DNA from: a virus
Length of the DNA: 64,000 nucleotides
Direction: 5' to 3' (one strand)
IMG/VR virus record: IMGVR_UViG_3300026521_000471
Location: 122,518-186,517 of that record
Below are positions 19,763 through 48,793 of this stretch, in pieces. Numbering within the stretch: position 1 is the first letter of the stretch; each line of letters starts with the position of its first letter. A program made the translations under genes and the position numbers. The notes under the pieces are model-generated. The model saw only the letters and a program-made list of their open reading frames with translations, did no database searches and had not been told where the DNA came from.

Positions 19763-20500
19763 ATGATATATACCATATATAAAATCACAAATAAACTAAA
19801 TAATAAAATATATATAGGAGCCCACACAACAGAGGACATTTCCGACAATTATATGGGTTCGGGAGCAATATTAAAAAAAGCTATTGAAAAATATGGGTTA
19901 GATAATTTTTATAAAGAGGTGTTATATACGTTTACAACCGAAGAAGAAATGTATTTAAAAGAAGCAGAGTTAGTTAATGAAGAATTTATTCAACGAGATG
20001 ATACTTATAATTTAAAGGTCGGTGGATATGGAGGATGGTCTTATATTAACGAAAATAAATTAAATAATACAGAAAAAAATAGATTATCAAGATTAAAAAA
20101 TTTGGAAAAAGCAAATGAAGCAAATAAAAAATTAGTTGCTGAAGGGAAGCATAGAAAAGGCTTTAAGATTAGTGCGGAAACAAAATTGAAAATGTCGTTA
20201 AATAAGAATCGGTCATTTCCTGGCGAAAAAAACCCTCAATATGGGAAAAAATGCGTTAATAAAAATGGTAAAAATTTGATGATATTAAAAGAGGAAGTAA
20301 ATGACTATATTAAAAAAGGTTGGGAGTTAGGTCAAATACAAAATAAACCAGATACCAAAGGAAATAAAAATGCGTCCTTTGGTAAAAGCTGGTACACAAA
20401 TGGTGAAGAAAGTAAATTATTAAGCCAAGAAGAGTCAATTAAATACATTTCTTTAGGTTGGACAAAGGGTAGAACATTGAAAAAAAGTAAGACTAGCTAG
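19763..20500 (+). CDS. GIY-YIG homing endonuclease (Seg/I-TevI-like)
   Basis: N-terminal IYKITNKLNNKIYIGAHTT...YNLKVGGYGG is a GIY-YIG module. The Lys-rich C-terminal half resembles a DNA-binding region. Flanked by duplicated phoH 3' sequence. Confidence 0.7.
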   Translation: MIYTIYKITNKLNNKIYIGAHTTEDISDNYMGSGAILKKAIEKYGLDNFYKEVLYTFTTEEEMYLKEAELVNEEFIQRDDTYNLKVGGYGGWSYINENKLNNTEKNRLSRLKNLEKANEANKKLVAEGKHRKGFKISAETKLKMSLNKNRSFPGEKNPQYGKKCVNKNGKNLMILKEEVNDYIKKGWELGQIQNKPDTKGNKNASFGKSWYTNGEESKLLSQEESIKYISLGWTKGRTLKKSKTS

Positions 20501-22087: not shown

Positions 22088-22531
22088 ATGAAAATAAGAA
22101 ATATTCTATTAGAAGCTAAAAAAAGAAGATGGAAAGGTCTAAATAATCATATCGTAGAAATTTTACCAAATAAAACGGGTTTCGGAACTGGTTCTGGTAA
22201 GTTTAGAATTAATAAAAAAGATGATAATGAAATTTGGACAATAAAAGTTGGACCAAATAGTACAAAATATTATATATATCTTGGTATAAGTCCTAATGCT
22301 AAAAAAATTGGATTTCGTATCCAGCCAAATAAAATAAATAGTGGAGTTGATGGTCATAAATTATTTAACAAAATTAAAAAATTAACAGATACTTTCAATA
22401 ATCAAATAATTTATCCAAAAAATAATAATACTGTAAATGAAGATTTTATTGATGAATTAATTAAATTAAATACTAATTTGTTTAATGAAATCAATAAAGC
22501 TGTGATAGATTTAAAAGAAAACTTTAAATAA
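22088..22531 (+). CDS. hypothetical protein
   Basis: ORF track; AAATAAGGCATTAAAAATG ribosome-binding site. Confidence 0.4.
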   Translation: MKIRNILLEAKKRRWKGLNNHIVEILPNKTGFGTGSGKFRINKKDDNEIWTIKVGPNSTKYYIYLGISPNAKKIGFRIQPNKINSGVDGHKLFNKIKKLTDTFNNQIIYPKNNNTVNEDFIDELIKLNTNLFNEINKAVIDLKENFK

Positions 22532-22536
22532 TTTTT

Positions 22537-23946
22537 TTATTTAAAGTTTTTTAATTCTATTTTTTCAACCTCAAATGGGTATTGAGCCTCTTTATAAAAA
22601 TCTTTTCTAGATTTTATATGTTTTTTATCATATTTTAAATTAGATGTTATATCAATTACTGTAACATGTTCTTTCTGTCCAGATTTTCTTCTAAGCCCTC
22701 TTCCAATCGATTGTATAACTTTTGTAAAACTTTTTCCAGGTGTAGGTGCAAGAATTAAGTTGTTAATATGTACAATATCAATTCCAGTACTAAGTAATGA
22801 ATATGTTCCAACTGTTACTAAATTACCACCATAAACGAATTCATTAAATTTCTCTTGTCTTTTATCAACCGTTAATTTTGAACTAATATAACCACACTCT
22901 AGAAATTCTGATAAATCTTCAGCCGGATCTATATTCTTCATCAATATCAATGTGTTACCTTCTAATGAATCAACAATGGCTTTCATTAATTTTTGAAACA
23001 TTTCATTACTTTGTAAAAAAACAGTCTCTTCATGCCAGTCAATAAATGAGCCTAAATATTCTTTAGGGTAAACCAATTCAAAAATATTAATATCTATTGA
23101 AGATAATATATTTCTCTTTTGTAATTCATGTGCTTTTACATCATAAACCACAGGACCAAAACCAGCTGTTAAATTAGCTTTGTCTAAAGGATCTTTTGGC
23201 ACAGTACCCGTCAAACCTATTCTCAAATATGAATTTTTTGCCTCATTCATAATTTGTTGAGCTACATATGCTTTAGCGCCATGTACTTCATCCCATATCA
23301 CACATTCAAAATCTCGTATAAAATGTTTATTATTTTGTAGTGTTTGCCAAGTAGCCACAATATTAATTTCATTATCTTTTTTACCACTACCAAACATACC
23401 GACAGGAATATCAAATTGTTTTATATAATCAAATGTCTGTTTTAACAATGATGATGATGGTACAATGACAATCGTTTTCATATTTAGTTTATTGGCATAT
23501 TTAACGATAGCTGATGTCAATAAGGTATTATGATGAACTGTTCCATTTGCTATTTGATATAAATGATTTTCAGAATTAACTTCGACATCATATAATAAAC
23601 CCTGTTCATTTAGATTCTCTATATTTGTAACTACTGCCATATGTTTTTCATCAACATTATATAATCTATCACCTATAGACAATTCATTGACTTTTTTTAT
23701 AGTTTGGTCATCTAACATTAAGATATGATTATCAGTAGTTATTATATTCTCTATTGCATCAATCTCTAGCTTTATTAAATTATCCTCTTTTACAATAAGA
23801 CCTTTAATATCAACCCATTTACCGACCTCATCTTGAATTTGAATTGGTGTACGTTGAAAATATTCCTCATCTCTACGAAATGCAATATCTTCTTCTAACG
23901 ATATTATTTTAAATAATTGTTCAAAAGTTAATTCTATTTCTTCCAT
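22537..23946 (-). CDS. C-terminal fragment of a split SF2 (UvsW-like) DNA helicase: 137-aa C-intein (IntC) followed by helicase motifs Ia-VI
   Basis: A TAA lies immediately upstream of the ATG. Residues 1-137 carry intein block B (TTDNHILM) and blocks F/G (LLYDVEVNSENHLYQIANGTVHHN). The +1 Thr then starts TLLTSAIVKYA...TIVIVPSSSL (motif Ia), DEVH (motif II), GLTGT (motif III) and QSIGRGLRR (motif VI). The P-loop (motif I) is absent and is found in the N-fragment at 39479..40027. Confidence 0.8.
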   Translation of the reverse strand: MEEIELTFEQLFKIISLEEDIAFRRDEEYFQRTPIQIQDEVGKWVDIKGLIVKEDNLIKLEIDAIENIITTDNHILMLDDQTIKKVNELSIGDRLYNVDEKHMAVVTNIENLNEQGLLYDVEVNSENHLYQIANGTVHHNTLLTSAIVKYANKLNMKTIVIVPSSSLLKQTFDYIKQFDIPVGMFGSGKKDNEINIVATWQTLQNNKHFIRDFECVIWDEVHGAKAYVAQQIMNEAKNSYLRIGLTGTVPKDPLDKANLTAGFGPVVYDVKAHELQKRNILSSIDINIFELVYPKEYLGSFIDWHEETVFLQSNEMFQKLMKAIVDSLEGNTLILMKNIDPAEDLSEFLECGYISSKLTVDKRQEKFNEFVYGGNLVTVGTYSLLSTGIDIVHINNLILAPTPGKSFTKVIQSIGRGLRRKSGQKEHVTVIDITSNLKYDKKHIKSRKDFYKEAQYPFEVEKIELKNFK

Positions 23947-24057
23947 TTATAGTCCTAAGAATTTATATAATATATTAATTATACATTTTATGTTAATAAA
24001 TATTTAAAGTATAATAGTGTATAATAATAACTTATTACCATAAAAAGGGATTTTAAC

Positions 24058-26024: not shown

Positions 26025-26624
26025 TCAATTATAAGGTTCTATATTAAATTCTTCAAATAGAACCTTAAGCCCAACAGTTAATTTTCCCGACTTTGGAAAG
26101 TCAGGAAATTTTTTCTTTCGTCCACTCAATCCATATTCTTTTTTTAATTTATTATAATTTCGTTTAGATACCTTTTGAGCTTTTGGTTCTTCTGATGGAT
26201 GTATATAAAAATTTCCTTCTTCATCTTGATATGCACCAGCTTCTAAATAATCTGCTAAATTTCGTAAAAAATCTGGCAAACTGATCGGGTGGTTAGTTTC
26301 ATCTGCTCCGAAATATCTTTTCCAGTTATTTGTGATTTTTCCTTCCATTGCATTTGCCCTAAACTCTAAAGCATTTCTAATCGTACCTTTTTGTTCAGAA
26401 CATTCTTCATTTTTTAATTTATGAATATGATCTAATACCATTTTATCGAGTTCAACCTCAATTCCTAATAATGGACATATTTTATTATTTTCTAACCATA
26501 ATTTTTCTTTTAATTCTTTTATATTTTTCTGTTTTAATTGTATTAATTGTTTCATAGTTTTATTTATATGATAAAAATTGTAAAATTGATATAAAAAAAA
26601 TAAGGTTTTGTAATGGATGAGCAA
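26025..26624 (-). CDS. putative His-Me finger nuclease (HNH / T4 endonuclease VII-like)
   Basis: ICPLLG...VLDHIHKL...EEC loosely resembles the endo VII CxxC...HLDHDHEL core. Free-standing on the minus strand between plus-strand genes. Confidence 0.35.
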   Translation of the reverse strand: MLIHYKTLFFLYQFYNFYHINKTMKQLIQLKQKNIKELKEKLWLENNKICPLLGIEVELDKMVLDHIHKLKNEECSEQKGTIRNALEFRANAMEGKITNNWKRYFGADETNHPISLPDFLRNLADYLEAGAYQDEEGNFYIHPSEEPKAQKVSKRNYNKLKKEYGLSGRKKKFPDFPKSGKLTVGLKVLFEEFNIEPYN

Positions 26625-28034
26625 ATAGATGATACAGAATATGAAGACGCTTTAGCCGAATTAGAGGCAGAATCATCTTCAAAAAAGAAAAAGAAGAAAA
26701 AAACAGTTGAACATTCAGAAGGCAAACTATTAGATATTGAAGATAAAGAACGAATTTTACTTGCTCAACTTATTAATAACCCAGAATTATTTGTTAAAGG
26801 TATAACTTTTCTAGATAAAGATTTCTTTGAATCAAAAATTAATAAATTAATTGTGGAATTTATGATTGATTATTATGATTTATATAAAAGTATCCCGCCT
26901 GAAGATGCTATACTATTAGAATTAAATTTAGATAACGTACATGATGATTGGTTAGATATAAATAAACCTTGGCCAACAGAGTATCTTGAAGACTATTTAA
27001 ATGCGTTTATAAAAAATATGAGTATGAAAGGTGCTATCGAAGATAGTATTGAATTACTAGAAGAAGAAGATTATGGAACTATTGAGAAGAAGATTAAAGA
27101 TGCTGTAAACGTTGATATTGATACAAAGTTAGGTGTAACCATAGATACTGATAAAGATAATTTTCGTGACTTATTTAAAATGCTAACATCAACTGAAGCT
27201 ACAATTCCAACTGGATGGTGGAACGTAGATGATAAATTAGATGGTGGTGTAACAATACCAAGTTTAAATTATTTATTAGCTAAATCTGGTGGTGGTAAAT
27301 CAATAGGTTTAATAAATTTAGCATGGAATTATATTCAGATGAAAAGGGATGTTATTTATATTTCTCTAGAACTAAAGGAAGAGAAAATCATGAAGAGGTA
27401 TATAACCCACTCAACTAAAATTCCGACCCATCAAATTGAAAAGTCTGAGATGGAAATTTATAACCATCTAAAGAAATGTGATAATAAGGGGTATGGTCGA
27501 TTTACTGTTCATTTCTATCAACCCAATACACTAAGTGCAATGAAGTTGGAATTATTTGTAAGAAATTATTTACAAAAATATAATACAGTACCTATTATTA
27601 TTCTAGATTATGCAGGTTTAATGACACCAAATGGTAAAAATTGGCAAGGTATGTTTGAAAAAGATAAATATGTTTCTGAAGAATTAAGAGCTGTGGCAAC
27701 GTTATTTGATACGATCGTTTGGACAGCAGACCAATATAATAGATGTATATCATTTGGTGAACAGGTAATAACACCGAATGGTAAAAAAAATATTGAAGAT
27801 GTTGAAATAGGGGATAAAGTTCTTGGGGGCAATAATAGTTATCGTACTGTAACAGCGATAACGGAGCCGGAAGAACAAGAAGTATATAAAATTACTTTAA
27901 AAAGTGGAAAAACTATCAAAGTATCAGGAAGACATATCTTCCCAAAAGTTTTAGAAGATGGGAAATTAGTAGAAGATTGCATATTATCTTCATTAAGTAT
28001 AGGTGACAAGTTGGTGGTCTCCGATAAAATATGA
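26613..28034 (+). CDS. DnaB / T4 gp41-like replicative helicase N-extein, interrupted after the QxNR motif by the N-terminal half of a classical split intein (IntN ~99 aa)
   Basis: TGWWNVDDKLDGG...LLAKSGGGKSIGLINLA (Walker A), IIILDYAGLM (Walker B), ...WTADQYNR. This is followed by CISFGEQVITPNGKKNIEDVEIGDKVLG (intein block A), TLKSGKTIKVSGRHIFP (block B) and ...SIGDKLVVSDKI, then a stop. Confidence 0.75.
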   Translation: MDEQIDDTEYEDALAELEAESSSKKKKKKKTVEHSEGKLLDIEDKERILLAQLINNPELFVKGITFLDKDFFESKINKLIVEFMIDYYDLYKSIPPEDAILLELNLDNVHDDWLDINKPWPTEYLEDYLNAFIKNMSMKGAIEDSIELLEEEDYGTIEKKIKDAVNVDIDTKLGVTIDTDKDNFRDLFKMLTSTEATIPTGWWNVDDKLDGGVTIPSLNYLLAKSGGGKSIGLINLAWNYIQMKRDVIYISLELKEEKIMKRYITHSTKIPTHQIEKSEMEIYNHLKKCDNKGYGRFTVHFYQPNTLSAMKLELFVRNYLQKYNTVPIIILDYAGLMTPNGKNWQGMFEKDKYVSEELRAVATLFDTIVWTADQYNRCISFGEQVITPNGKKNIEDVEIGDKVLGGNNSYRTVTAITEPEEQEVYKITLKSGKTIKVSGRHIFPKVLEDGKLVEDCILSSLSIGDKLVVSDKI

Positions 28035-29333: not shown

Positions 29334-31511
29334 ATGGATGTTAAATATTTTTTAGAAAAATTAGGAAGTTTATTAATTATTGGATTTGTTATTATATCCA
29401 CGTCTATTATACTTTATTTTAGCTATAAGTCAAATAATAAAGATATTATGGATGACATTGACAATAATTTACGCCACGAATTGATTATTTTATCTATTGC
29501 GTCCGAAGATTTGTTTAACAAATATAACAATATACTTACAATGTTAGGGGATAATATTTTATCCAAAGATAATAAACAAAAATATTTAGATACAGCATTA
29601 AAATTAGAAACTGATGCAGTGGGCTATGGTTTTATATCACCCGAAGGTAATATATTAATTAACTCCTCAAACGTCGATATAAAGAAGATCTCTAATTTTA
29701 TCTCCAACCCCAAAACTAAAGGAACATTTCTTAAAACTATAAAATCAAAATCATCAATTTTAGGACGGTCATATTTATTTAAACCGACAAATCAATTAAT
29801 TGTACCAATAAGAAAAAGTATTAGGAAAAATTCAAAAGTATATGGTGTACTAGCGGTAGGCATTAATATAAATAAGTCGTTTTCTAATTTATTTACAAAT
29901 AAAATACATAACAATTCTATAATTTTATTAATCAAAAATAACTCAGCTAGAATTCAATATTCAAACGATAATACGTTCGAAATAGATTCTATTTTAAAAA
30001 CCGATAATCCTCGACTTTTTAAAACTATAAATCAAATGACATTGACTAATACATCATTAAATAATATAAAATATAGGGTAGGTGTAAAATTTATTGAAAA
30101 ATACAATCTATGGCTTGTTATAGGCTTTCCTTCAAAAGTTATATCTTCATTAAAAAATGAATGGTTAATAAATGCTGTATCTATATGGTTTGTTTTTAAC
30201 GTAAGTTTTATTATAATGATATTAATTATTAATAAGATTAATAACGATCGGAAAAATGAATTGGAATATATTTCTATACATGATCCATTAACACATATTG
30301 GAAATAGATATTATTTAAATAAGAAAATAGTCGATTACGAAGAATATAGTATGCTATTTTTAGATCTAGACAATTTTAAATTTATAAATGATAACTTCGG
30401 ACATAATTACGGAGATAAATTTTTAGTTTCTATAGCAACAGAACTTAAAAAAAATATTTCTGCTGATGATTTATTAATACGTTTTAGTGGTGATGAATTT
30501 ATAATTATTACTAGGGAAATGAATAAAGATAAATTATTAAGTTTTGCTAAAAGATTATTGAATATGACTAATGAGAAATTTAAATATGAGCATAAGACAA
30601 CCATGAGTATTGGTATTGCACAACGAGAGGGATCTGAAGATCTACATAATGTAAAATATAAAGCAGATTTAGCTTTATATATAGCAAAAGAAGAACTAAA
30701 CACCATTATATTCTATGATAAAAATATAGAAGAATCATTTAAAGAAGAACATTTAATAGAAAATGAACTATTAGAAGGTATTATTTTAAAAGAAATTTTC
30801 ATGGTTTATCAACCACAATTAAATACTAAAAATAAAATCGTAGGAATAGAAGCATTAGTTCGATGGAATAATTCAAAGTTAGGTTATATAAATCCCGAGA
30901 CATTTATCAAAATCGCTGAAAAAAATGGAAATATGATAATTTTAGGTGATCATATATTAAATCAAGTTTTTAGTGATATTAATACATTTAAAAATATAAT
31001 TCCAGATAATTTTAATATATCTATTAATATTTCTGTTAAACAATTTATGGAAGATAACTTTGTACAAAAATTAAAGGATAAATTATACCAATATAAAGTC
31101 AATCCAAATAATATCACATTAGAAGTAACAGAAAATATATTTATTTTAGATTTAAACTATATGGAACAAATAATAAATGATTTGCATACATTGGGTGTAA
31201 AAATTTCTATTGATGATTTTGGAACAGGATACTCTTCTTTATCTTCTGTTAAACATCTGACTATTGATGAAATAAAGATTGATAAATCTTTTGTAGATAA
31301 TATTGAAAACGACCATAGTTCCAAAAGTATGGCTGAAGTAATTATTAAAATGAGTAAAATTTTTAATACCATTATTTTAGCTGAAGGTATAGAAAATATC
31401 AAACAAAAAGAAATTCTTGATAACTTAGGGTGCGATTTCTACCAAGGATATTACTTTTCAAAACCTTTACCATTAACAAAATTAAAAGAGTTCATAAAAA
31501 ATAATATTTAA
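29334..31511 (+). CDS. membrane-anchored sensor protein with GGDEF (SGDEF variant) and EAL domains (c-di-GMP cyclase/phosphodiesterase family)
   Basis: Two predicted transmembrane segments flank a ~250-aa extracytoplasmic region. GGDEF domain: HDPLTHIGNRYYL, LDLDNFKFINDNFGHNYGDKFL, RFSGDEF. EAL domain: EALVRW, LEVTENI, DDFGTGYSS, KIDKSFV, AEGIEN, QGYYFSKP. Confidence 0.8.
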   Translation: MDVKYFLEKLGSLLIIGFVIISTSIILYFSYKSNNKDIMDDIDNNLRHELIILSIASEDLFNKYNNILTMLGDNILSKDNKQKYLDTALKLETDAVGYGFISPEGNILINSSNVDIKKISNFISNPKTKGTFLKTIKSKSSILGRSYLFKPTNQLIVPIRKSIRKNSKVYGVLAVGININKSFSNLFTNKIHNNSIILLIKNNSARIQYSNDNTFEIDSILKTDNPRLFKTINQMTLTNTSLNNIKYRVGVKFIEKYNLWLVIGFPSKVISSLKNEWLINAVSIWFVFNVSFIIMILIINKINNDRKNELEYISIHDPLTHIGNRYYLNKKIVDYEEYSMLFLDLDNFKFINDNFGHNYGDKFLVSIATELKKNISADDLLIRFSGDEFIIITREMNKDKLLSFAKRLLNMTNEKFKYEHKTTMSIGIAQREGSEDLHNVKYKADLALYIAKEELNTIIFYDKNIEESFKEEHLIENELLEGIILKEIFMVYQPQLNTKNKIVGIEALVRWNNSKLGYINPETFIKIAEKNGNMIILGDHILNQVFSDINTFKNIIPDNFNISINISVKQFMEDNFVQKLKDKLYQYKVNPNNITLEVTENIFILDLNYMEQIINDLHTLGVKISIDDFGTGYSSLSSVKHLTIDEIKIDKSFVDNIENDHSSKSMAEVIIKMSKIFNTIILAEGIENIKQKEILDNLGCDFYQGYYFSKPLPLTKLKEFIKNNI

Positions 31512-31568
31512 GTTAATTATAAGTTTATTTTGTATATAATAAAACCTAATAAAAATTTAGGAGTTAGA

Positions 31569-32492
31569 ATGGAAAAACTTATGAAGACCATTGGATGGTC
31601 AGTAGTACTAGGTATTGGCCTTGTTATAATCTTAGGATTTATGGCAATCACAAAAACTGGATTTGCAATTGTAAATGACGGTGAAAGAGGCGTTATGAAA
31701 ACAGGTACAAAATATGATATGACGGAAGTACAACCCGGTTATCATTTCTTTATACCAATCTATCAGAGTATTGAGATAGACACGATTCGTCCAAAACTTA
31801 TTAATTATTCAAGAACAGAAGCAAACAAAGAAGATTCTGAATTACTTATTTTTGAACCGGTTCTTAAAGGTTTAGATAAAAAAGGTATTCCTATTGAGTT
31901 AGCTTTAAGTATTGAAGTAAAACCCGTAGCAGATCAACTAGCTGAAATGTATAAGAATGATGGTGATTTTGAAAATGCATTCTATAAAAAAGTTAAGCAG
32001 GTAAATAGAGAGGCCGTACAAGCTACAATTTCTAGATTTAGTGTTGATACTATTATGGATAAAAGACCTGAAGTTGAAAAGTATCTTACAGAAAAACTTA
32101 ATGAAAGTTACTCTAAAAACCCATATTTTAAATTGGTAAATATCAATCTTAAAGATATTATAGTGCCAAAAGAGATCGCTGATAAGATGTTAGAAGTTCA
32201 ATCGGCTAAACAAGATGCTCTCAAATCACAAGAGTTAATTAAGAAAGCACAAAATGAAGCTAAAGCGAGAGAAGCTAAAGCTCAAGGTGAAGCTAATGCA
32301 GTTAAAATTGCGGCACAAGGTAGAGCTGATGCTATTTTAGTCGAGGCTAATGCCCAATCAAAAGCTAATAAATTACTTAGTGCATCATTAACTGATAAGG
32401 TTATTAAAATTCAAACCGTTGAAAAGTGGAATGGTTCTGTACCTACTTATGTTGGTGGAGAAAATTCACAATTTATTATGGATATGAAATAA
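31569..32492 (+). CDS. SPFH / band-7 domain protein (HflC/prohibitin-like)
   Basis: The ORF-track start at 31530 is a TTG inside the TGTATATAAT promoter. ATG 31569 follows TTAGGAG. One N-terminal transmembrane helix, an SPFH core, and an Ala/Lys-rich coiled C-terminus (KAQGEANAVKIAAQGRADAILVEANAQ). Confidence 0.7.
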   Translation: MEKLMKTIGWSVVLGIGLVIILGFMAITKTGFAIVNDGERGVMKTGTKYDMTEVQPGYHFFIPIYQSIEIDTIRPKLINYSRTEANKEDSELLIFEPVLKGLDKKGIPIELALSIEVKPVADQLAEMYKNDGDFENAFYKKVKQVNREAVQATISRFSVDTIMDKRPEVEKYLTEKLNESYSKNPYFKLVNINLKDIIVPKEIADKMLEVQSAKQDALKSQELIKKAQNEAKAREAKAQGEANAVKIAAQGRADAILVEANAQSKANKLLSASLTDKVIKIQTVEKWNGSVPTYVGGENSQFIMDMK

Positions 32493-38881: not shown

Positions 38882-39486
38882 AACTCGAAACATTAATTTC
38901 AACAGTTAAAGATAAAATTATATACAAAATGGATTTCTATCAATCTATTATTATTATTAATGTTCCAAAGCAAAAAATTTTAAATAAAGGTACTATAATT
39001 TTTTTGCTAAATAAACAATCAGGTGTATTATCTGGAGAATGGTTTAATAATAAAAATAGCAATATAAAATTATTTGGAATTCTAAATAATAAATTTATAA
39101 AATCCATATTAAAAAATAAAAAATTAAGATTATTAAATAGTATCTTACCTGATGTATTAGTCAATAAAGATTTTATAATAGAATATAAATTTCTTTCACC
39201 AGAAGAGAAAAAATTATTGAAAGAGTATATAATATCTTCTGAAGAACAAATACACAACAAGTATATGACATTTGATAATAAATTTAATAAAGTCTCTTGG
39301 GAACAAAGCATTAAACTATCTTCTAACTATTTTGTAGAATGGTGTAAAGATAGCTCAAATATACAAGATTGTATTAAAAATGCAATCAACATTGCTAATA
39401 AAAATTTAGATATAAATTTAAAACGCAGAGCAATTTTAAATAAATGTTTTATAGATATTAGAAAATGGAGAGAAAAAAATGGCTAA
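38878..39486 (+). CDS. hypothetical protein
   Basis: ORF track. Confidence 0.4.
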   Translation: MKLETLISTVKDKIIYKMDFYQSIIIINVPKQKILNKGTIIFLLNKQSGVLSGEWFNNKNSNIKLFGILNNKFIKSILKNKKLRLLNSILPDVLVNKDFIIEYKFLSPEEKKLLKEYIISSEEQIHNKYMTFDNKFNKVSWEQSIKLSSNYFVEWCKDSSNIQDCIKNAINIANKNLDINLKRRAILNKCFIDIRKWREKNG

Positions 39487-40027
39487 AAAAAAGAAAAATA
39501 TACCTATCCATATTACAAAACGTGATTCATCAACATTTGTTTTAAATAAGATTTCGTCTAGTATGTTATATCATGTACAACAAAAATTCGCATATTTACC
39601 ACCAGGTTATAAATTTCAACCTAGATTTAGACTTATGGGTATTAAAGGTGTACAAGTTAAGCTAGTACACGCAGATGGTTCATTCCCAATGGGATTATTT
39701 TCAGAAGTTGTAGAATATTTAACAGAGGTGCAAAAAAAGAAAGTTACTATGAGCAGTGAAGTAATGGAACATTTTTTACCACTAACTGATTTTTTTGAAG
39801 ATGGTATAAAAGATGATATATTCTCAGACTATGAATTCGATGGTAATCCTGTAATATTAAGAGATTATCAATTAGGTGCAGTTGAAGCCGCTTTTGAAAA
39901 TAGAAACGGCTTATTAAATTTATCTACTGGTGCAGGTAAGTGCTTAGGTGGTGAAACTAAAATACGAGTAAAATTAAGTAGTGAACTAATTAAAAAATAT
40001 AAAGTTATTATAAAAGGCGAATTATGA
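39479..40027 (+). CDS. N-terminal fragment of the split SF2 (UvsW-like) helicase: Q-motif and P-loop, followed by a 28-aa N-intein (IntN)
   Basis: ...RDYQLGAVEAAF...LLNLSTGAGK then CLGGETKIRVKLSSELIKKYKVIIKGEL and a stop. CLGGETKIRV fits intein block A (C-L-x-G-[DE]-T-x-[IV]) directly after the Walker A lysine. The matching IntC and C-extein are at 22537..23946 on the minus strand. Confidence 0.75.
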   Translation: MAKKKKNIPIHITKRDSSTFVLNKISSSMLYHVQQKFAYLPPGYKFQPRFRLMGIKGVQVKLVHADGSFPMGLFSEVVEYLTEVQKKKVTMSSEVMEHFLPLTDFFEDGIKDDIFSDYEFDGNPVILRDYQLGAVEAAFENRNGLLNLSTGAGKCLGGETKIRVKLSSELIKKYKVIIKGEL

Positions 40028-40314
40028 AATTATGGATGAATGGATATGATACGACCATAGATGATTTTCCACAAATCATCTATAAAAATAAAATTTTATC
40101 ATATGAAGAACAAGCCTTTTTAACTAATAAAATTTTTGGCTTATTTCAATTAACACATCGAGATAAATTTAAAGAAATAAATGAAATAAAATTAAATACA
40201 AATGAATTACCATTTAAAAAATTATATCAATTAATTCATTCAGATGATAAATATGAATTTGAAGCTGAATATATGGTATATCTATTAAATTATTTCTCCG
40301 TGGAACTAGATTAA
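40024..40314 (+). CDS. hypothetical protein
   Basis: ORF track; ATGA overlap. Confidence 0.35.
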   Translation: MKLWMNGYDTTIDDFPQIIYKNKILSYEEQAFLTNKIFGLFQLTHRDKFKEINEIKLNTNELPFKKLYQLIHSDDKYEFEAEYMVYLLNYFSVELD

Positions 40315-40517
40315 TGATAACTGAAATTATAAGATTTAACTGTCATGTATTAAAGGTAAATAAATATAACAAAATAACTCCTGATGAATTGTTATTAGAA
40401 TATAAAACTCGTAACAACCTTATTTTAGAAAATACGGAAGTATATGTTGAAAGCTGTAAATGGGCTGCTGGAAGTACTAGTACTATTATAACAAAAGTGA
40501 AAAGGATAGAAAAATGA
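40314..40517 (+). CDS. hypothetical small protein
   Basis: ORF track. Confidence 0.35.
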   Translation: MITEIIRFNCHVLKVNKYNKITPDELLLEYKTRNNLILENTEVYVESCKWAAGSTSTIITKVKRIEK

Positions 40518-40963
40518 CTTATGCTCAAAATAAAAAGGCTAGATTTAATTATGAAATCATAGAAATATTTGAAGCAGGGATTGTACTAACAGGTGGTGAA
40601 GTAAAATCTGTAAGAGATAGTACAATTTCTCTTAAAGAAAGCTATGTTAAAATAAAAAATAATGAATTATTTTTAACTCAAGCTCATGTTTCAGTCCCTA
40701 CATACATACCATCATATGCAGTATTTGATGAAGTCCAAGATAGAAAATTGTTAATGCATAAAAGAGAGATTTTAAAACTTAAAAATAAATTGAAAGAACA
40801 GGGTTTGACTTTAATTGTATTATCAATTTATCAACGTGAAGGCACAAAAAAGATAAAAGTACAGTTGGCATTAGCTAGAGGTAAAAAATTATATAATAAA
40901 AAACAAACTATCAAAGAACGTGATATTAAACGAGATATGGAAAGAACATTAAAAAAATTCTAA
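40514..40963 (+). CDS. smpB: SsrA-binding protein SmpB
   Basis: KKARFNYEIIEIFEAGIVLTGGEVKSVR...LLMHKREILKLKNKLKEQGLTLIVLSIYQREGT.KIKVQLALARGKKLYNKKQTIKERDIKRD aligns along its full length with bacterial SmpB. Confidence 0.85.
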   Translation: MTYAQNKKARFNYEIIEIFEAGIVLTGGEVKSVRDSTISLKESYVKIKNNELFLTQAHVSVPTYIPSYAVFDEVQDRKLLMHKREILKLKNKLKEQGLTLIVLSIYQREGTKKIKVQLALARGKKLYNKKQTIKERDIKRDMERTLKKF

Positions 40964-43071: not shown

Positions 43072-44325
43072 ATGGCTATTTTACAGCTCCATTCTGATGA
43101 TCCAAATTTTGGATACATTATCAAAAAAAACCCAAATTCATCTATGCAAATAAGAAGTATACGTAAAGGTACTGCTTTTACATGGTATTCTCATAATGGT
43201 ACCGACTTTAATATTTATTTTAAAGATGCTGATAATGATGTATCGTTTGGATCGCAAGAATTCGATTATCTAAATATTTCTAAATATAATTCACCGATGT
43301 TTATTATCAATGCAATAAGTGAGTTTTTTTCAAGTACTGTTAGAGAAGAATCAGAATTAGATATAAAAAGTTCAAAATATTTTTATATTAACTTACTTGA
43401 AATCAAAAGAATAAAACAATTAATGGATTTTAAGAAATATTTCCCTGATTTTGAAATTGAAATTACCGAACAAGTTGGGAAAAATTATACTATTAAAGTA
43501 ATAACTGAAAATAGTTGGTTTATGTTATTAAATTATATTAATCTTATGATGATTTTTATTGCATTATCAAGTAACGACTACGTACATTTAGATAGTTCAA
43601 ATATTGAAAAATATCTAAATGCTATGAATCGATTGGATGCACCATTTTTTATACGTTATTTAGTAAGTAGAAATCTTATTAAAAGTAAAAACCAATTTAA
43701 AAAATATAAACAATTACTTGAAAAATCAAAAAGATATAATATCAATATGGCATATGGTAATACGGCTATGCAACGGAAAGACAAAATAGAACGTTTATTA
43801 TCATTTGATAAATCGATTCTTGATATTGGGTGTGGAGAAGGTTTTTATGCTATAGATTTTTCTAAAAAAATAGAAAAATATTCTTATAATGCCATTGACA
43901 TTAATCCTAATCTATTAGAGTCGATCAAGATAAAAGCTTCAAAAAAAGAAATTACAAATATTAATCTCTTTAATAGTCTAGAAGATTTTATAAAGATTTA
44001 CAATGATGAGTTAGTAGATATAATACTAACTGAAGTTATTGAACACATGCCAAAAGATGAATCAAAAAGATTAATAGAGACAGTATTGATGTCTATTAAT
44101 TTTAATACATTCATTATTACCGTACCAAATAAAGACTTTAATATTTTTTATGAATTAGGTGATGAAATGAGACATGATGATCATGACTGGGAACCTACAT
44201 TTGATGAATTTAAAAATTTTATAGCTAATTTTAATAATGATGGTTTATCTTTTGAATTTATAGAAATAGGTGATACTATCGATGGTATCTCTACAAGTAT
44301 CGGTTGTATAATTAAAAAGGTATAA
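43072..44325 (+). CDS. hen1: Hen1-like RNA 3'-terminal 2'-O-methyltransferase (bacterial Hen1 architecture: N-terminal domain plus C-terminal Mg-dependent methyltransferase)
   Basis: C-terminal domain: ILDIGCGEGFYAIDF (SAM motif I), LTEVIEHMPKDE (the Hen1 EVIEH metal motif), MRHDDHDWEPTFDEF (Hen1 HxDHxFEWTxxEF). The ~240-aa N-domain is consistent with the ligase-activating domain. Confidence 0.8.
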   Translation: MAILQLHSDDPNFGYIIKKNPNSSMQIRSIRKGTAFTWYSHNGTDFNIYFKDADNDVSFGSQEFDYLNISKYNSPMFIINAISEFFSSTVREESELDIKSSKYFYINLLEIKRIKQLMDFKKYFPDFEIEITEQVGKNYTIKVITENSWFMLLNYINLMMIFIALSSNDYVHLDSSNIEKYLNAMNRLDAPFFIRYLVSRNLIKSKNQFKKYKQLLEKSKRYNINMAYGNTAMQRKDKIERLLSFDKSILDIGCGEGFYAIDFSKKIEKYSYNAIDINPNLLESIKIKASKKEITNINLFNSLEDFIKIYNDELVDIILTEVIEHMPKDESKRLIETVLMSINFNTFIITVPNKDFNIFYELGDEMRHDDHDWEPTFDEFKNFIANFNNDGLSFEFIEIGDTIDGISTSIGCIIKKV

Positions 44326-46102: not shown

Positions 46103-48793
46103 ATGAATAAAATTAAAACACAAGTACATACTATAATAATGCTTATTGGACCTAGTGGTTCTGGTAAAACAACATTCGCTAATGAAATTCTAATACCCAC
46201 ATTACAAGAATATAAAGGTAGTGGAAATGACAATTTAAAAACAAATATACAATATATTAGTTCTGATGATATTAGAAAAGATATTTTAGGATATAATTAT
46301 AGTAAAATAGATGAAATTATGACTGAAAGTTCAACACAAGCATTTGAAATATTATTTACAAAATTAAGAGCTGTTACTAGTTATCCAATCAATGCTGAAT
46401 TTGTTATTTTAGATACAACTGGATTAAGTGAAAAATTTAGAAATGATGTTTTAGATATAGCAAAAGATAATAATTATAATGTCGATATTATAGTTTTCGA
46501 TTATAAGAATATTGATGAATATCAGAAAAATTTTTCTGATGAAGTTTATCAACAACCTAGTACTAATGGCAAAATTATTTCTAAGCATATAAAAAGATTA
46601 AAAACAGAAACATTAAAAACATTAAAAAAAGGTGTATATAAAAATATTCATAAAATTAAAAATAAAGATTTTCTTTTAGAAGTTGAACAGGAGAATCCAT
46701 ATGATTTAACACCTACTATGTTAAAACCTCTTTATAGTGTAGATGTATGGGATTGGAAAAAATATACTGATAGAATATTAAATAGTACTTATGATTGGAT
46801 TACTATTGGTGATGTTCATGGATGTATTCATGAATTAAAACAATTACTTGAAAAATATGGTTTTATAATTGAAGACAATGAAATCATAGATACAAACAAA
46901 ACAAAAAATATAGGATTGATTTTTGCAGGTGATTTAATTGATAAGTCGTCAGAAGAAGATTTAACTGAAACTATAAGATTTATACATAAAAATATGATAA
47001 AATTTCAAGATCGTTTTCAATTAATATTAGGTAATCATGAAGAGATGGTCTGGAAATGGATAACAAATCATAAAGATTTAGAAATTACTCCAGAACGATT
47101 GGATCAGAAAAAAAGATACTATAATACAGCAATTTTACTAGAGAAAAATGAAGAGTTAAAATCTATGTTTTTAGATATTTTTCATAATATGAAAGGTTGG
47201 GTTAAATTTATAGGATTAAACAAAAGAAGTTTTGTAGTTACACATGCACCATGTGAGGTTAAATATCTCGAAAAAATGGATCGTATTTCATTAAAACGTC
47301 AATATAAATGCGCTAGTAGAAGTAAAAACAAAGATAAGACTAATGATGAACTAACACCATATTTAAAAGAAGAAGCAGTTAATAACCATCCAGTTCACAT
47401 ATTTGGTCATATGGGACAATCATCTGTTAGATCTTTTAAAAATAAAGTTTGTATTGATACAGGCTGTGTATATGGTGGAAGATTAACTGGATACAGTATA
47501 GGATACGGTAAACCATTTATTCAAAGTGTAAAATCATTATCTCCTAAGAGTGCAAGAAACGACTTTGGAAATAATCTATTTGAAGATATAGGTAAAGCTA
47601 TAAAAGAAGTATCTATTGAAGATTTAAATCCATACAACCAAAAAAGATTAGATTATATAGTAAAAAATGGCATAGGATACATAGGAGGTACAATTTCACC
47701 TTCAAATAAAAACATCGAAAAAAATTCACTAGAATCTTTAGATAGTGGACTTAATTATTTCAAAGATAAAGTAGATAGTGTAGTTCTACAACCTAAATAT
47801 ATGGGGTCTAGAGCACAACTGTATCTCTTTAAAGATAATATTGAAAAATGCTATGCTACAAGTAGAAATGGATATAAAATTAGAGAGGACTTAACTGATT
47901 TATTCTCATCTAAATTAATAGAATACAAGCATATTTTTGATATGTATAATGCTGATGAGATAATTATAGATGGTGAATTATTACCATGGGCTCTTTTAGG
48001 AAAAGGTTTGATAGAAACACATTTTAAAACTGCGGATATAGCTATCCAAACAGAAATCGACTTTCTGGATGATAATGGGTTTGATAAGGCTTTTTTAAGT
48101 TTAAAGGATGAATTTAATGAATCAGAATTTTTAAAAGATAAAAATATTTTAGCTAAAAAAGAATTAGCTAAAAAATATGGTCACAAATATCACTCTTATA
48201 AAGATTTAAAATTTGAAATTGATAGATTCATACCTTTAAGTAAACACAAAAAAGCTTGGAAAATTTTCAATAAACAAATAACCCTTTATGGAGATGATAC
48301 AAATACAGATTTTAAAGGTTTTAGATTATTAAAAGTAATATCAAATAACAATATAATCGATTTGGATCTAACCCCTAGCGAACACTTTAAACTATTAAAT
48401 TCAGATGATATTCATATTGTTGATTTCAATGATAAAGACTATTTAGTTAAAGCTGAAAGATGGTATGATGATTTAGTGAGTAATCAAAATATGGAAGGTT
48501 GTGTAATAAAACCGGAAGTAAAGTTATTAGAATCTTGGATTGCTCCATATTTAAAAGTAAGAAATGAAGAATATCTTTCTATCATTTATGGGTATGATTA
48601 TAAATTCCCTGTCAAATTTAATAGATTATTAAATCAAAAAAATATTTCTAAAAAATTAAGACTCTCTATATCAGAGTATAAATTAGGAGAAGAAATGCTT
48701 AAAGCTCCTATGGGTAGTAAAGAACAAATACAGATTATAGCCAATCTATTATTTGAAAATGAAAAAGAAGAAAGCGTCGATCCAAGATTATAA
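46103..48793 (+). CDS. pnkp: bacterial-type polynucleotide kinase-phosphatase-ligase (Pnkp): P-loop 5'-kinase, metallophosphatase, and adenylyltransferase/ligase domains
   Basis: IMLIGPSGSGKTTFAN (kinase P-loop). ITIGDVHGC, IFAGDLIDK and LGNHEE (calcineurin-like phosphatase). C-terminal ...VVLQPKYMGSRAQLY (nucleotidyltransferase KxxG motif I). At 896 aa with this domain order it matches Clostridium-type Pnkp. Confidence 0.85.
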   Translation: MNKIKTQVHTIIMLIGPSGSGKTTFANEILIPTLQEYKGSGNDNLKTNIQYISSDDIRKDILGYNYSKIDEIMTESSTQAFEILFTKLRAVTSYPINAEFVILDTTGLSEKFRNDVLDIAKDNNYNVDIIVFDYKNIDEYQKNFSDEVYQQPSTNGKIISKHIKRLKTETLKTLKKGVYKNIHKIKNKDFLLEVEQENPYDLTPTMLKPLYSVDVWDWKKYTDRILNSTYDWITIGDVHGCIHELKQLLEKYGFIIEDNEIIDTNKTKNIGLIFAGDLIDKSSEEDLTETIRFIHKNMIKFQDRFQLILGNHEEMVWKWITNHKDLEITPERLDQKKRYYNTAILLEKNEELKSMFLDIFHNMKGWVKFIGLNKRSFVVTHAPCEVKYLEKMDRISLKRQYKCASRSKNKDKTNDELTPYLKEEAVNNHPVHIFGHMGQSSVRSFKNKVCIDTGCVYGGRLTGYSIGYGKPFIQSVKSLSPKSARNDFGNNLFEDIGKAIKEVSIEDLNPYNQKRLDYIVKNGIGYIGGTISPSNKNIEKNSLESLDSGLNYFKDKVDSVVLQPKYMGSRAQLYLFKDNIEKCYATSRNGYKIREDLTDLFSSKLIEYKHIFDMYNADEIIIDGELLPWALLGKGLIETHFKTADIAIQTEIDFLDDNGFDKAFLSLKDEFNESEFLKDKNILAKKELAKKYGHKYHSYKDLKFEIDRFIPLSKHKKAWKIFNKQITLYGDDTNTDFKGFRLLKVISNNNIIDLDLTPSEHFKLLNSDDIHIVDFNDKDYLVKAERWYDDLVSNQNMEGCVIKPEVKLLESWIAPYLKVRNEEYLSIIYGYDYKFPVKFNRLLNQKNISKKLRLSISEYKLGEEMLKAPMGSKEQIQIIANLLFENEKEESVDPRL

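Follow-up and report, generated by a model that had tools for sequence, protein, structure and literature searches.

A UvsW-like helicase of an uncultured jumbo phage, probably assembled from two genes by a natural, atypically split mini-intein

Introduction

A helicase gene that opens inside an intein and lacks its P-loop raises the question of where the rest of the protein is encoded and how a working enzyme could be made from the parts. Such a gene lies in a 64,000-nucleotide stretch of viral DNA (IMG/VR record IMGVR_UViG_3300026521_000471, positions 122,518 to 186,517), referred to in its whole length as the window. The window is AT-rich (27% GC), and its source is an uncultured jumbo phage. 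In this study, we located both parts of the helicase, modelled the intein between them and compared the locus with metagenomic relatives and with characterised inteins. The results support, with a probability of about 85%, a UvsW-like helicase that is trans-spliced from two genes through a natural, atypically split class-1 mini-intein.

Results

Two genes encode complementary parts of one helicase

The C-fragment gene (22537..23946, minus strand; from the open reading frame (ORF) list and its translation) encodes 469 aa, consisting of the C-terminal intein fragment (IntC) and the C-extein of a UvsW-like helicase, and ends in a stop codon at 22537..22539. IntC comprises 140 codons (23527..23946, minus strand), reads MEEIELTFEQLF...NGTVHHN, and contains helix α1 and blocks B, F and G. 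Block B (motif N3) was read as TTDNH at IntC residues 70-74 (23725..23739, minus strand), and blocks F/G as LLYDVEVNSENHLYQIANGTVHHN, followed by Thr. The C-terminal splice junction, H-H-N/T(+1), with the slash marking the point of cleavage here and below, occupies 23524..23535 (minus strand). The C-extein (329 codons; 22540..23526, minus strand) starts from the Thr of GxGK-T and opens with TLLTSAIVKYAN; alignment with the helicases of phages Phosso and RaK2 and with T4 UvsW (PDB 2OCA) placed helicase motifs Ia to VI and Helicase_C in it, and its motif II region reads WDEVH (DEVH). The C-fragment matched Pfam ResIII (1e-10) and Helicase_C (1.5e-8) as well as the PHROG family 'DNA helicase' (8e-57).

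An in-frame TAA at 23947..23949 abuts the ATG of the C-fragment and more in-frame stops follow farther upstream, so no upstream start can provide this protein with a P-loop. A Shine-Dalgarno-like AGGA (23953..23956, minus strand; consensus match only) lies 6 nt 5' of the ATG, and the gene has its own upstream intergenic region of 110 nt. These results bear out what the initial annotation had proposed, namely a protein that starts inside an intein immediately behind a TAA, with block B (TTDNHILM) and blocks F/G in IntC, Thr as the +1 nucleophile, and a helicase sequence that begins without a P-loop at the Walker A Thr (GAGK/T), only the GxGK part being missing. The upstream in-frame start with a P-loop that it had reported absent was indeed not there, and its size for the C-intein, 137 aa, is corrected to 140 aa by the sequence.

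The same annotation had named an ORF at 39479 as the partner, and this ORF does supply GxGK and an N-intein. The N-fragment gene (39479..40027, plus strand; ORF list; Pfam UvsW_N 1.3e-7) encodes 182 aa, an N-extein followed by the N-terminal intein fragment (IntN). The N-extein, 154 codons long (39479..39940, plus strand), consists of the UvsW N-terminal domain plus the first part of RecA-like domain 1, and closes with the Walker-A residues GAGK (39929..39940, plus strand). IntN follows with 28 codons (39941..40024, plus strand), in which CLGGETKIRVKL forms block A and strands β1-β2, so that the C-terminus of the N-fragment reads ...LLNLSTGAGK/CLGGETKIRVKLSSELIKKYKVIIKGEL before the stop. The stop codon (40025..40027, plus strand) overlaps the ATG of the next ORF. 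Since a Shine-Dalgarno-like GGAGAG (39467..39472, plus strand), 6 nt 5' of the N-fragment ATG, sits inside the end of the preceding ORF, translational coupling of the N-fragment within an operon is suggested. The ORF that overlaps the stop (ATGA) encodes 96 aa (40024..40314, plus strand) without family assignment; every relative examined has a small ORF of 92-96 aa here, and for two of these the identity was 89% and 33%.

When GAGK was joined to TLLT in silico, the resulting 483-aa protein had the full Walker-A motif GAGKT, which neither half has alone; by itself, each half would be inactive. The Pfam ResIII E-value improved from 1e-10 for the C-fragment alone to 1.5e-19 after joining, and UvsW_N (4.5e-7), DEAD (6.2e-10) and Helicase_C (1.7e-8) were also detected in the spliced product. 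The intein-free helicases of Phosso and RaK2 read ATGAGKTLLTA and ATGAGKTIICA across the junction, and BLASTP aligned the spliced product with the Phosso helicase (1e-68) without interruption at this point. Matches of tblastn to jumbo phages that seemed to reach into the intein (alignments beginning at query residue 40 or 117) were rejected as spurious alignment extensions, because the Phosso and RaK2 helicases are intein-free. The closest solved relative was T4 UvsW (PDB 2OCA; residues 27-464, E = 5.7e-28), which has the UvsW_N, ResIII and Helicase_C domains in common with the spliced product but is a single polypeptide without an intein, at low identity. Judged by its domains and motifs, the host protein is a predicted UvsW-like superfamily 2 (SF2) helicase with an N-domain, two RecA-like domains and motifs I-VI, and the spliced product could have the same function as T4 UvsW, that is, unwinding of R-loops or branched DNA. 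A tblastn search for a second UvsW-like sequence within the 64-kb window found none.

The inserted sequence is predicted to be a class-1 mini-intein with a Hint fold

We assessed the residues required for splicing in alignments of the family. Cys1 opens block A (CLGGETKI), and both C1 and T6 were present in 60/60 family IntN sequences. The block-B motif of IntC is T71-D-N-H74, in which Thr is frequently Ala in relatives and the His (H106 in fused numbering) was invariant in alignments of 62 and 68 rows. Block F reads YDVEV, and its Asp (D152), together with H171 and N172, was likewise invariant. All 59 IntC-bearing clusters within the helicase clade have HHN/T. A class-3 WCT signature is absent, since block F carries Asp and not Cys. 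An extra His, two residues before the terminal Asn of IntC (23527..23535, minus strand), was conserved in more than 90% of the family; at the position of the family HHN, VidaL ends SHN and Npu DnaE ASN. This additional His may help to activate the Thr or Ser +1 nucleophile.

Because curated single-sequence intein models fell below threshold, a family profile was built from 62 sequences and searched against the solved structures in the PDB. The best match was VidaL (E = 2.3e-10), with gp41-1 second (E = 2.5e-10), followed by Spl DnaX (E = 1.1e-6), PolB16 over its whole length (E = 1.2e-6) and CatC (E = 4.9e-6); Pho RadA and Npu DnaE matched more weakly than PolB16.

The structure of IntN fused to IntC was then predicted with AlphaFold2 (AF2) from a 68-row alignment. 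The result was a single Hint domain with a mean predicted local distance difference test score (pLDDT) of 93.3 and a predicted template modelling score (pTM) of 0.88, while a run on the single sequence without an alignment was unusable (pLDDT 39.7). Separate IntN rows had been dropped from the alignment, as IntN tails were misaligned onto helix α1. In a Foldseek search of this model against the PDB, 50/50 top matches were inteins or related Hint-fold (intein-like) domains, the best being VidaL 6vgv (E 3.5e-8; TM-score 0.82 normalised to the target; 21% identity). A structure prediction of IntN with IntC had been proposed initially as a check on the Hint fold, and the model predicts this fold with confidence. 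The initial description as a mini split intein devoid of a homing-endonuclease domain is also in line with the model, since IntN and IntC together amount to 168 aa in one domain and leave no room for such an endonuclease. We take the insert to be a class-1 mini-intein with a predicted Hint fold.

The intein is broken between strand β2 and helix α1

In the AF2 model, IntN forms strands at residues 6-7 and 11-15 and a helix at 18-23, the IntN/IntC junction (32/33) lies in a loop, and IntC continues with a strand at 35-39 and then helix α1 at 40-50. The start of IntC aligns with that of VidaL IntC (MIEEKKVTVQELRELY here versus MEEIELTFEQLFKII in VidaL). Natural inteins that combine a short IntN of about 15-37 aa with an IntC of more than 100 aa are split at two sites, S1 after β2, as in VidaL (16-aa IntN) and PolB16 (15-aa IntN), and S2 after α1, as in AceL-TerL (25-aa IntN) and GOS-TerL (37-aa IntN) (PMC13014065). 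We assigned α1 to IntC because the AF2 model, the VidaL alignment and relatives with an IntN of 14-16 aa agree on this. The break, as modelled, falls after β2 and before α1 and is of the S1 type seen in VidaL and PolB16, giving a 28-aa IntN and a 140-aa IntC in place of the canonical roughly 100 + 35 aa; a caveat on this assignment is that a family-specific helix stands between β2 and the break. The atypical split, which the initial annotation had not mentioned, is the most distinctive feature of the intein.

The helix before the break is the IntN tail, SSELIKKYKVIIKGEL, which forms a short amphipathic helix. Over 71 N-fragment clusters, IntN was 14-32 aa long, with a mode of 26 and one outlier of 63 aa. 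The tail is under constraint, given its conserved pattern LPxELIxKYKHLLEK with K19-Y20 in 59/60 sequences; it is basic, and the head of IntC is acidic. Contiguous members of the family also have a helix between β2 and α1, so the tail is characteristic of the family and did not arise from the break. An origin of the tail as a duplicate of α1 created when the gene broke is unsupported for the same reason. Sliding of the split site between S1 and S2 was considered for P0104, a relative whose IntC seemed to lack α1, and was rejected, as its start had been miscalled and the true ORF begins MQTVKISYENLFKLIS. Some relatives (P0072, P0070, P0071 and P0066; also locus L012, 10001..10486) have a 14-16-aa IntN (CLGPNTMITVDIGE, CLGADMKIKVKIDDK) without the tail; at 14 aa, the IntN is shorter than the 15-aa IntN of PolB16, described as the shortest characterised.

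The tail and the catalytic residues bear together on whether the halves are spliced at all. They could instead merely associate through the intein fragments, with the intein acting as a non-covalent dimerisation module that rebuilds the P-loop. Thr is a poor nucleophile at +1, the case for the chemistry is drawn from sequence comparison, and selection for binding, to which the near-invariant K19-Y20 of the tail helix points, would suit pure association just as well. However, residues that serve only the chemistry have been kept, namely Cys1 (60/60), the block-B His, the block-F Asp, and HHN with Thr+1 (59/59). Moreover, to judge from P-loop structure, the nucleotide-binding loop would be disrupted if the 168-aa Hint domain stayed in place between K and T, and helicase activity should for this reason depend on splicing. 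We consider association alone quite improbable and prefer trans-splicing.

The intein resembles VidaL but differs from all characterised split inteins

The natural intein VidaL (PDB 6vgv/6vgw), which is atypically split and has an IntN of 16 aa, was both the best structural and the best profile match of the window intein. The two share class 1, Cys1, a mini-intein format that lacks an endonuclease, the break after β2 and before α1, and a P-loop-like extein context. They differ in several respects. The window IntN is 28 aa long with a conserved helical tail of 12-16 aa (..ELIKKYK..) after β2, whereas VidaL lacks a long tail and is resembled more closely by the relatives with a 14-16-aa IntN. 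The +1 residue is Ser in VidaL and Thr here, and the window IntC has about 15 extra residues (EEDIAFRRDEEYFQRT) after α1 and ends HHN instead of SHN. The exteins of the VidaL construct read ESG/SGK versus GAGK/T here, placing the VidaL site three residues earlier in the Walker-A loop. As the junctions differ and identity is about 21%, the two are not the same insertion allele. The VidaL sequence was taken from the supplement of PMC10264447; this intein has been used for live-cell protein engineering.

PolB16 OarG (PDB 8cpn; 15-aa IntN) was the best single-sequence PDB match of the fused window intein (E 0.06) and likewise has a natural S1-type split and a long IntC (168 aa), but it is a cysteine-less Ser1/Ser+1 intein of a PolB DNA polymerase, unlike the Cys1/Thr+1 window intein. 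PolB16 relies on the motif-NX His, its block-B His being dispensable (PMC10189870), whereas the block-B His is invariant in the window family. AceL-TerL, GOS-TerL and Cat are similar in IntN length (25-37 aa versus 28), in their long IntC and in their phage or metagenomic origin (PMC13014065, PMC11766414), but they are split after α1 (S2), lie in terminase large subunits and have Cys+1. gp41-1 and other canonical phage split inteins share the replication-helicase context, the logic of trans-splicing and the mini-intein format, but their IntN has about 90-100 aa and their IntC about 35-40 aa.

Natural atypically split inteins have been described as rare (PMC11766414), with a handful characterised (AceL-TerL, GOS-TerL, VidaL and PolB16). 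Among these, the Cys1/Thr+1 pair is new. The comparison supports well that the window intein adds a natural example to a known but sparsely characterised kind, in an arrangement that is not unprecedented. In our literature search, we found no paper on UvsW with a split intein, and related helicase alleles could be included in the original description of VidaL; the sole match that combined UvsW and split-intein terms concerns other genes of Campylobacter phages.

The split is old and both halves are under selection

The C-fragment protein (P0073) was found in identical form, with the same flanks, on four metagenome contigs from different runs and assemblers, and six further metagenomic loci begin at the same IntC residue behind an in-frame stop. 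N-fragment homologues formed 71 clusters of 124-218 aa (mostly 158-188), 70 of which end alike. IntC-bearing C-fragments formed 59 clusters. Throughout both sets, the fragments have start and stop codons of their own, and these are placed alike. More than 70 clusters retain the split, the most divergent of them at about 43% identity. That the gene is truly contiguous, or the ATG internal to a longer ORF, and the split an artefact of assembly or gene calling, could be argued from the metagenomic origin of the window and from the miscalled start of P0104; yet this is hardly credible in view of the TAA at the ATG and the in-frame stops upstream, the recurrence of the identical C-fragment across runs and assemblers, the six other loci that start alike after a stop, and N-fragments that stop 14-32 codons after Cys1.

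The ratio of nonsynonymous to synonymous substitution rates (dN/dS) was determined against a 94%-identical relative. It was 0.12 for IntC, 0.09 for IntN, 0.04 for the C-extein and 0.03 for the N-extein, at a dS of about 0.5. These values argue strongly for purifying selection on both intein halves and both exteins. They also bear on whether a genome rearrangement broke the helicase and left two nonfunctional pseudogene remnants in decay. Rearrangements have occurred, as 15.5 kb separates the halves, which are encoded on opposite strands, and a distant relative has the block with the C-fragment and PhoH in the other orientation. However, remnants would not be expected to combine low dN/dS in all four segments, intact frames with start, stop and Shine-Dalgarno-like sites, relatives in which no frame disruptions were seen, and a split that persists across so many clusters. 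Decay is very improbable, and two functional genes joined by trans-splicing account better for these data.

In the window, the two halves are transcribed divergently, with about 15 unrelated genes between them, including those for DnaB, a GGDEF-EAL protein, dCTP deaminase, ligase and a PD-(D/E)XK nuclease. The divergent orientation recurs in the 94%-identical relative, in which a single 221.5-kb contig holds both halves at a distance of 17.5 kb. On the 89-kb contig of a relative with 54% identity, the two genes share one strand and the C-fragment lies 11 kb upstream of the N-fragment, from which we infer that the window lineage inverted the block with the C-fragment and PhoH. A DNA-inversion switch that joins the halves was rejected on geometry: their 5' ends face each other, so inversion cannot bring the N-fragment 3' end to the C-fragment 5' end. 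The 'fractured gene' arrangement, in which split halves flank a free-standing homing-endonuclease gene at one locus, also differs from the distant, divergent halves found here.

The separation into distinct units raises the possibility of a regulatory AND gate, which is compatible with trans-splicing and not exclusive of it. The halves would belong to differently timed transcription units, helicase activity would require expression of both, and this would time the UvsW switch from origin- to recombination-dependent replication. The N-fragment is in a nuclease-containing operon and the C-fragment has its own 110-nt intergenic region, the separation is ancient and maintained, and T4 UvsW shuts off origin R-loops according to literature cited in PMC3322345. 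On the other hand, a scan for promoters and terminators was uninformative at 27% GC (23 sites versus 15.7 expected), and fixation after loss of a homing endonuclease explains the persistence without any benefit. We regard such a gate as unlikely.

A distant helicase, P0158 (640 aa), carries a homologous intein unsplit at the same GAGK/C...HHN/T site. The nearest intein-free full-length relatives were 33-40% identical, so the split is apparently fixed in this clade. No close relatives were found in IMG/VR scans, a GTDB genome scan or a megablast search against cultured phages. A word-indexed search had returned one match, from which IntC seemed rare; this inference was discarded owing to the low sensitivity of that search, as an exhaustive one gave 118.

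Related inteins occupy the P-loops of several ATPase families

The exhaustive HMMER search with IntC alone gave 118 representatives after clustering at 50% identity, 90 of them split, with IntC residue 1 at the start, and 28 contiguous, with an internal IntC; about three quarters of the family members are therefore split at the same site before α1. Nearly all of the 118 end in (I/V)HHN, followed by Thr or Ser, and their insertion point is directly after a Walker-A GK. The hosts include RecA, ClpB- and ClpX-like AAA+ proteins and other SF2 helicases (P0194-P0307 among the representative matches), which suggests a P-loop-specialised intein lineage that moved between ATPase families.

A second intein was present in motif II in 18 of the 59 UvsW-clade clusters (WDE/CVHPSS...CVKN/CH). 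It is contiguous in P0100 and P0102 and canonically split elsewhere, and the combination of two different split inteins yields three-piece helicases, represented by the middle pieces P0141, P0144 and P0156 and the C-pieces P0130 and P0136. The window gene reads WDEVH at this site and is without the second intein.

Other genes in the window

A second split-intein gene of the window (26613..28034, plus strand) encodes a DnaB-type (T4 gp41-like) helicase fragment (Pfam DnaB_C 4.9e-14). It ends ...TADQYNR/CISFGEQVITPNGKK...SGRHIFPK...VVSDKI followed by a stop, and its canonical IntN of about 93 aa has blocks A and B. A motif scan of the window for its IntC-bearing partner found none.

Three genes downstream of the N-fragment lies a homologue of SmpB, the partner protein of transfer-messenger RNA (40514..40963, plus strand; Pfam SmpB 1.4e-48), which is kept in the 94%-identical relative (L010). 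An RNA-repair pair follows on the plus strand, with Hen1 (43072..44325; Hen1_N 1.5e-64 plus a methyltransferase) and a Pnkp-like protein (46103..48793; AAA_33 plus PNKP_ligase); relatives add Thg1, T4 RNA ligase 1 and NAMPT (L013).

A 725-aa protein (29334..31511, plus strand) showed weak, sub-threshold dCache, GGDEF and EAL domains (EAL 3.9e-66). These domains point weakly to a possible role in cyclic-di-GMP turnover, an unusual phage cargo. An SPFH/Band-7 protein (31530..32492) comes after it. A 147-aa ORF (22088..22531, plus strand), opposite in strand to the C-fragment, separates it from PhoH and may be an insertion, because the ORF is missing at this place in the distant relative L016. 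A 245-aa ORF adjoining PhoH (19763..20500, plus strand) gave a weak, sub-threshold match to a SegE-type GIY-YIG endonuclease (E 1e-4).

Discussion

The chemistry by which the two proteins would be joined is proposed here because of the conserved residues and established knowledge of inteins. IntN, with its two β-strands and basic amphipathic helix, would dock into the acidic IntC, whose Hint fold is nearly complete but open. An N-S acyl shift would take place at Cys1, and the resulting thioester would be attacked by the hydroxyl of Thr+1 in a transesterification. Cyclisation of the terminal Asn140 would then release the intein, and an O-N shift would form a native peptide bond, giving the 483-aa helicase with an intact GAGKT P-loop.

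Several points weigh against this proposal. Association of the halves, their splicing and the activity of the product as a helicase are all inferred. Thr+1 is a weaker nucleophile than Cys, which could slow splicing or favour side reactions by cleavage. The search with Pfam and NCBIfam intein hidden Markov models that had been suggested as a check stayed under the thresholds, with 31.2 bits for Intein_splicing (cutoff 35.8) and 12.7 for TIGR01443 (cutoff 15.6). The AF2 model is of an artificial fusion, and since few alignment rows (12/68) span both halves, the docking mode of IntN, including the tail helix (pLDDT about 85), is less certain. Finally, the window covers 64 kb of a genome of roughly 224 kb, and an intact UvsW could be present elsewhere.

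A broader proposal, tentative and on balance doubtful, is that these inteins form a large and essentially undescribed VidaL-like lineage, specialised for Walker-A GK/S/T sites, that has spread among unrelated P-loop ATPases of large phages (UvsW-like, RecA/UvsX and ClpB/ClpX-like), and in which the basic 'KY' helix on the IntN of the UvsW clade serves as an affinity handle by pairing with the acidic IntC head. If it is true that the KY helix and the Cys1/Thr+1/HHN residues give fast, orthogonal trans-splicing, new short-tag tools for protein ligation would follow. A short IntN is prized because it can be obtained by synthesis and enlarges a target protein only slightly, and the intein is accordingly of practical interest for protein engineering.

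The biological interest is moderate. The persistent separation of the halves might time the activation of the helicase. On the trans-splicing reading, a clade of jumbo phages would have long depended on protein trans-splicing for an essential recombination and replication helicase.

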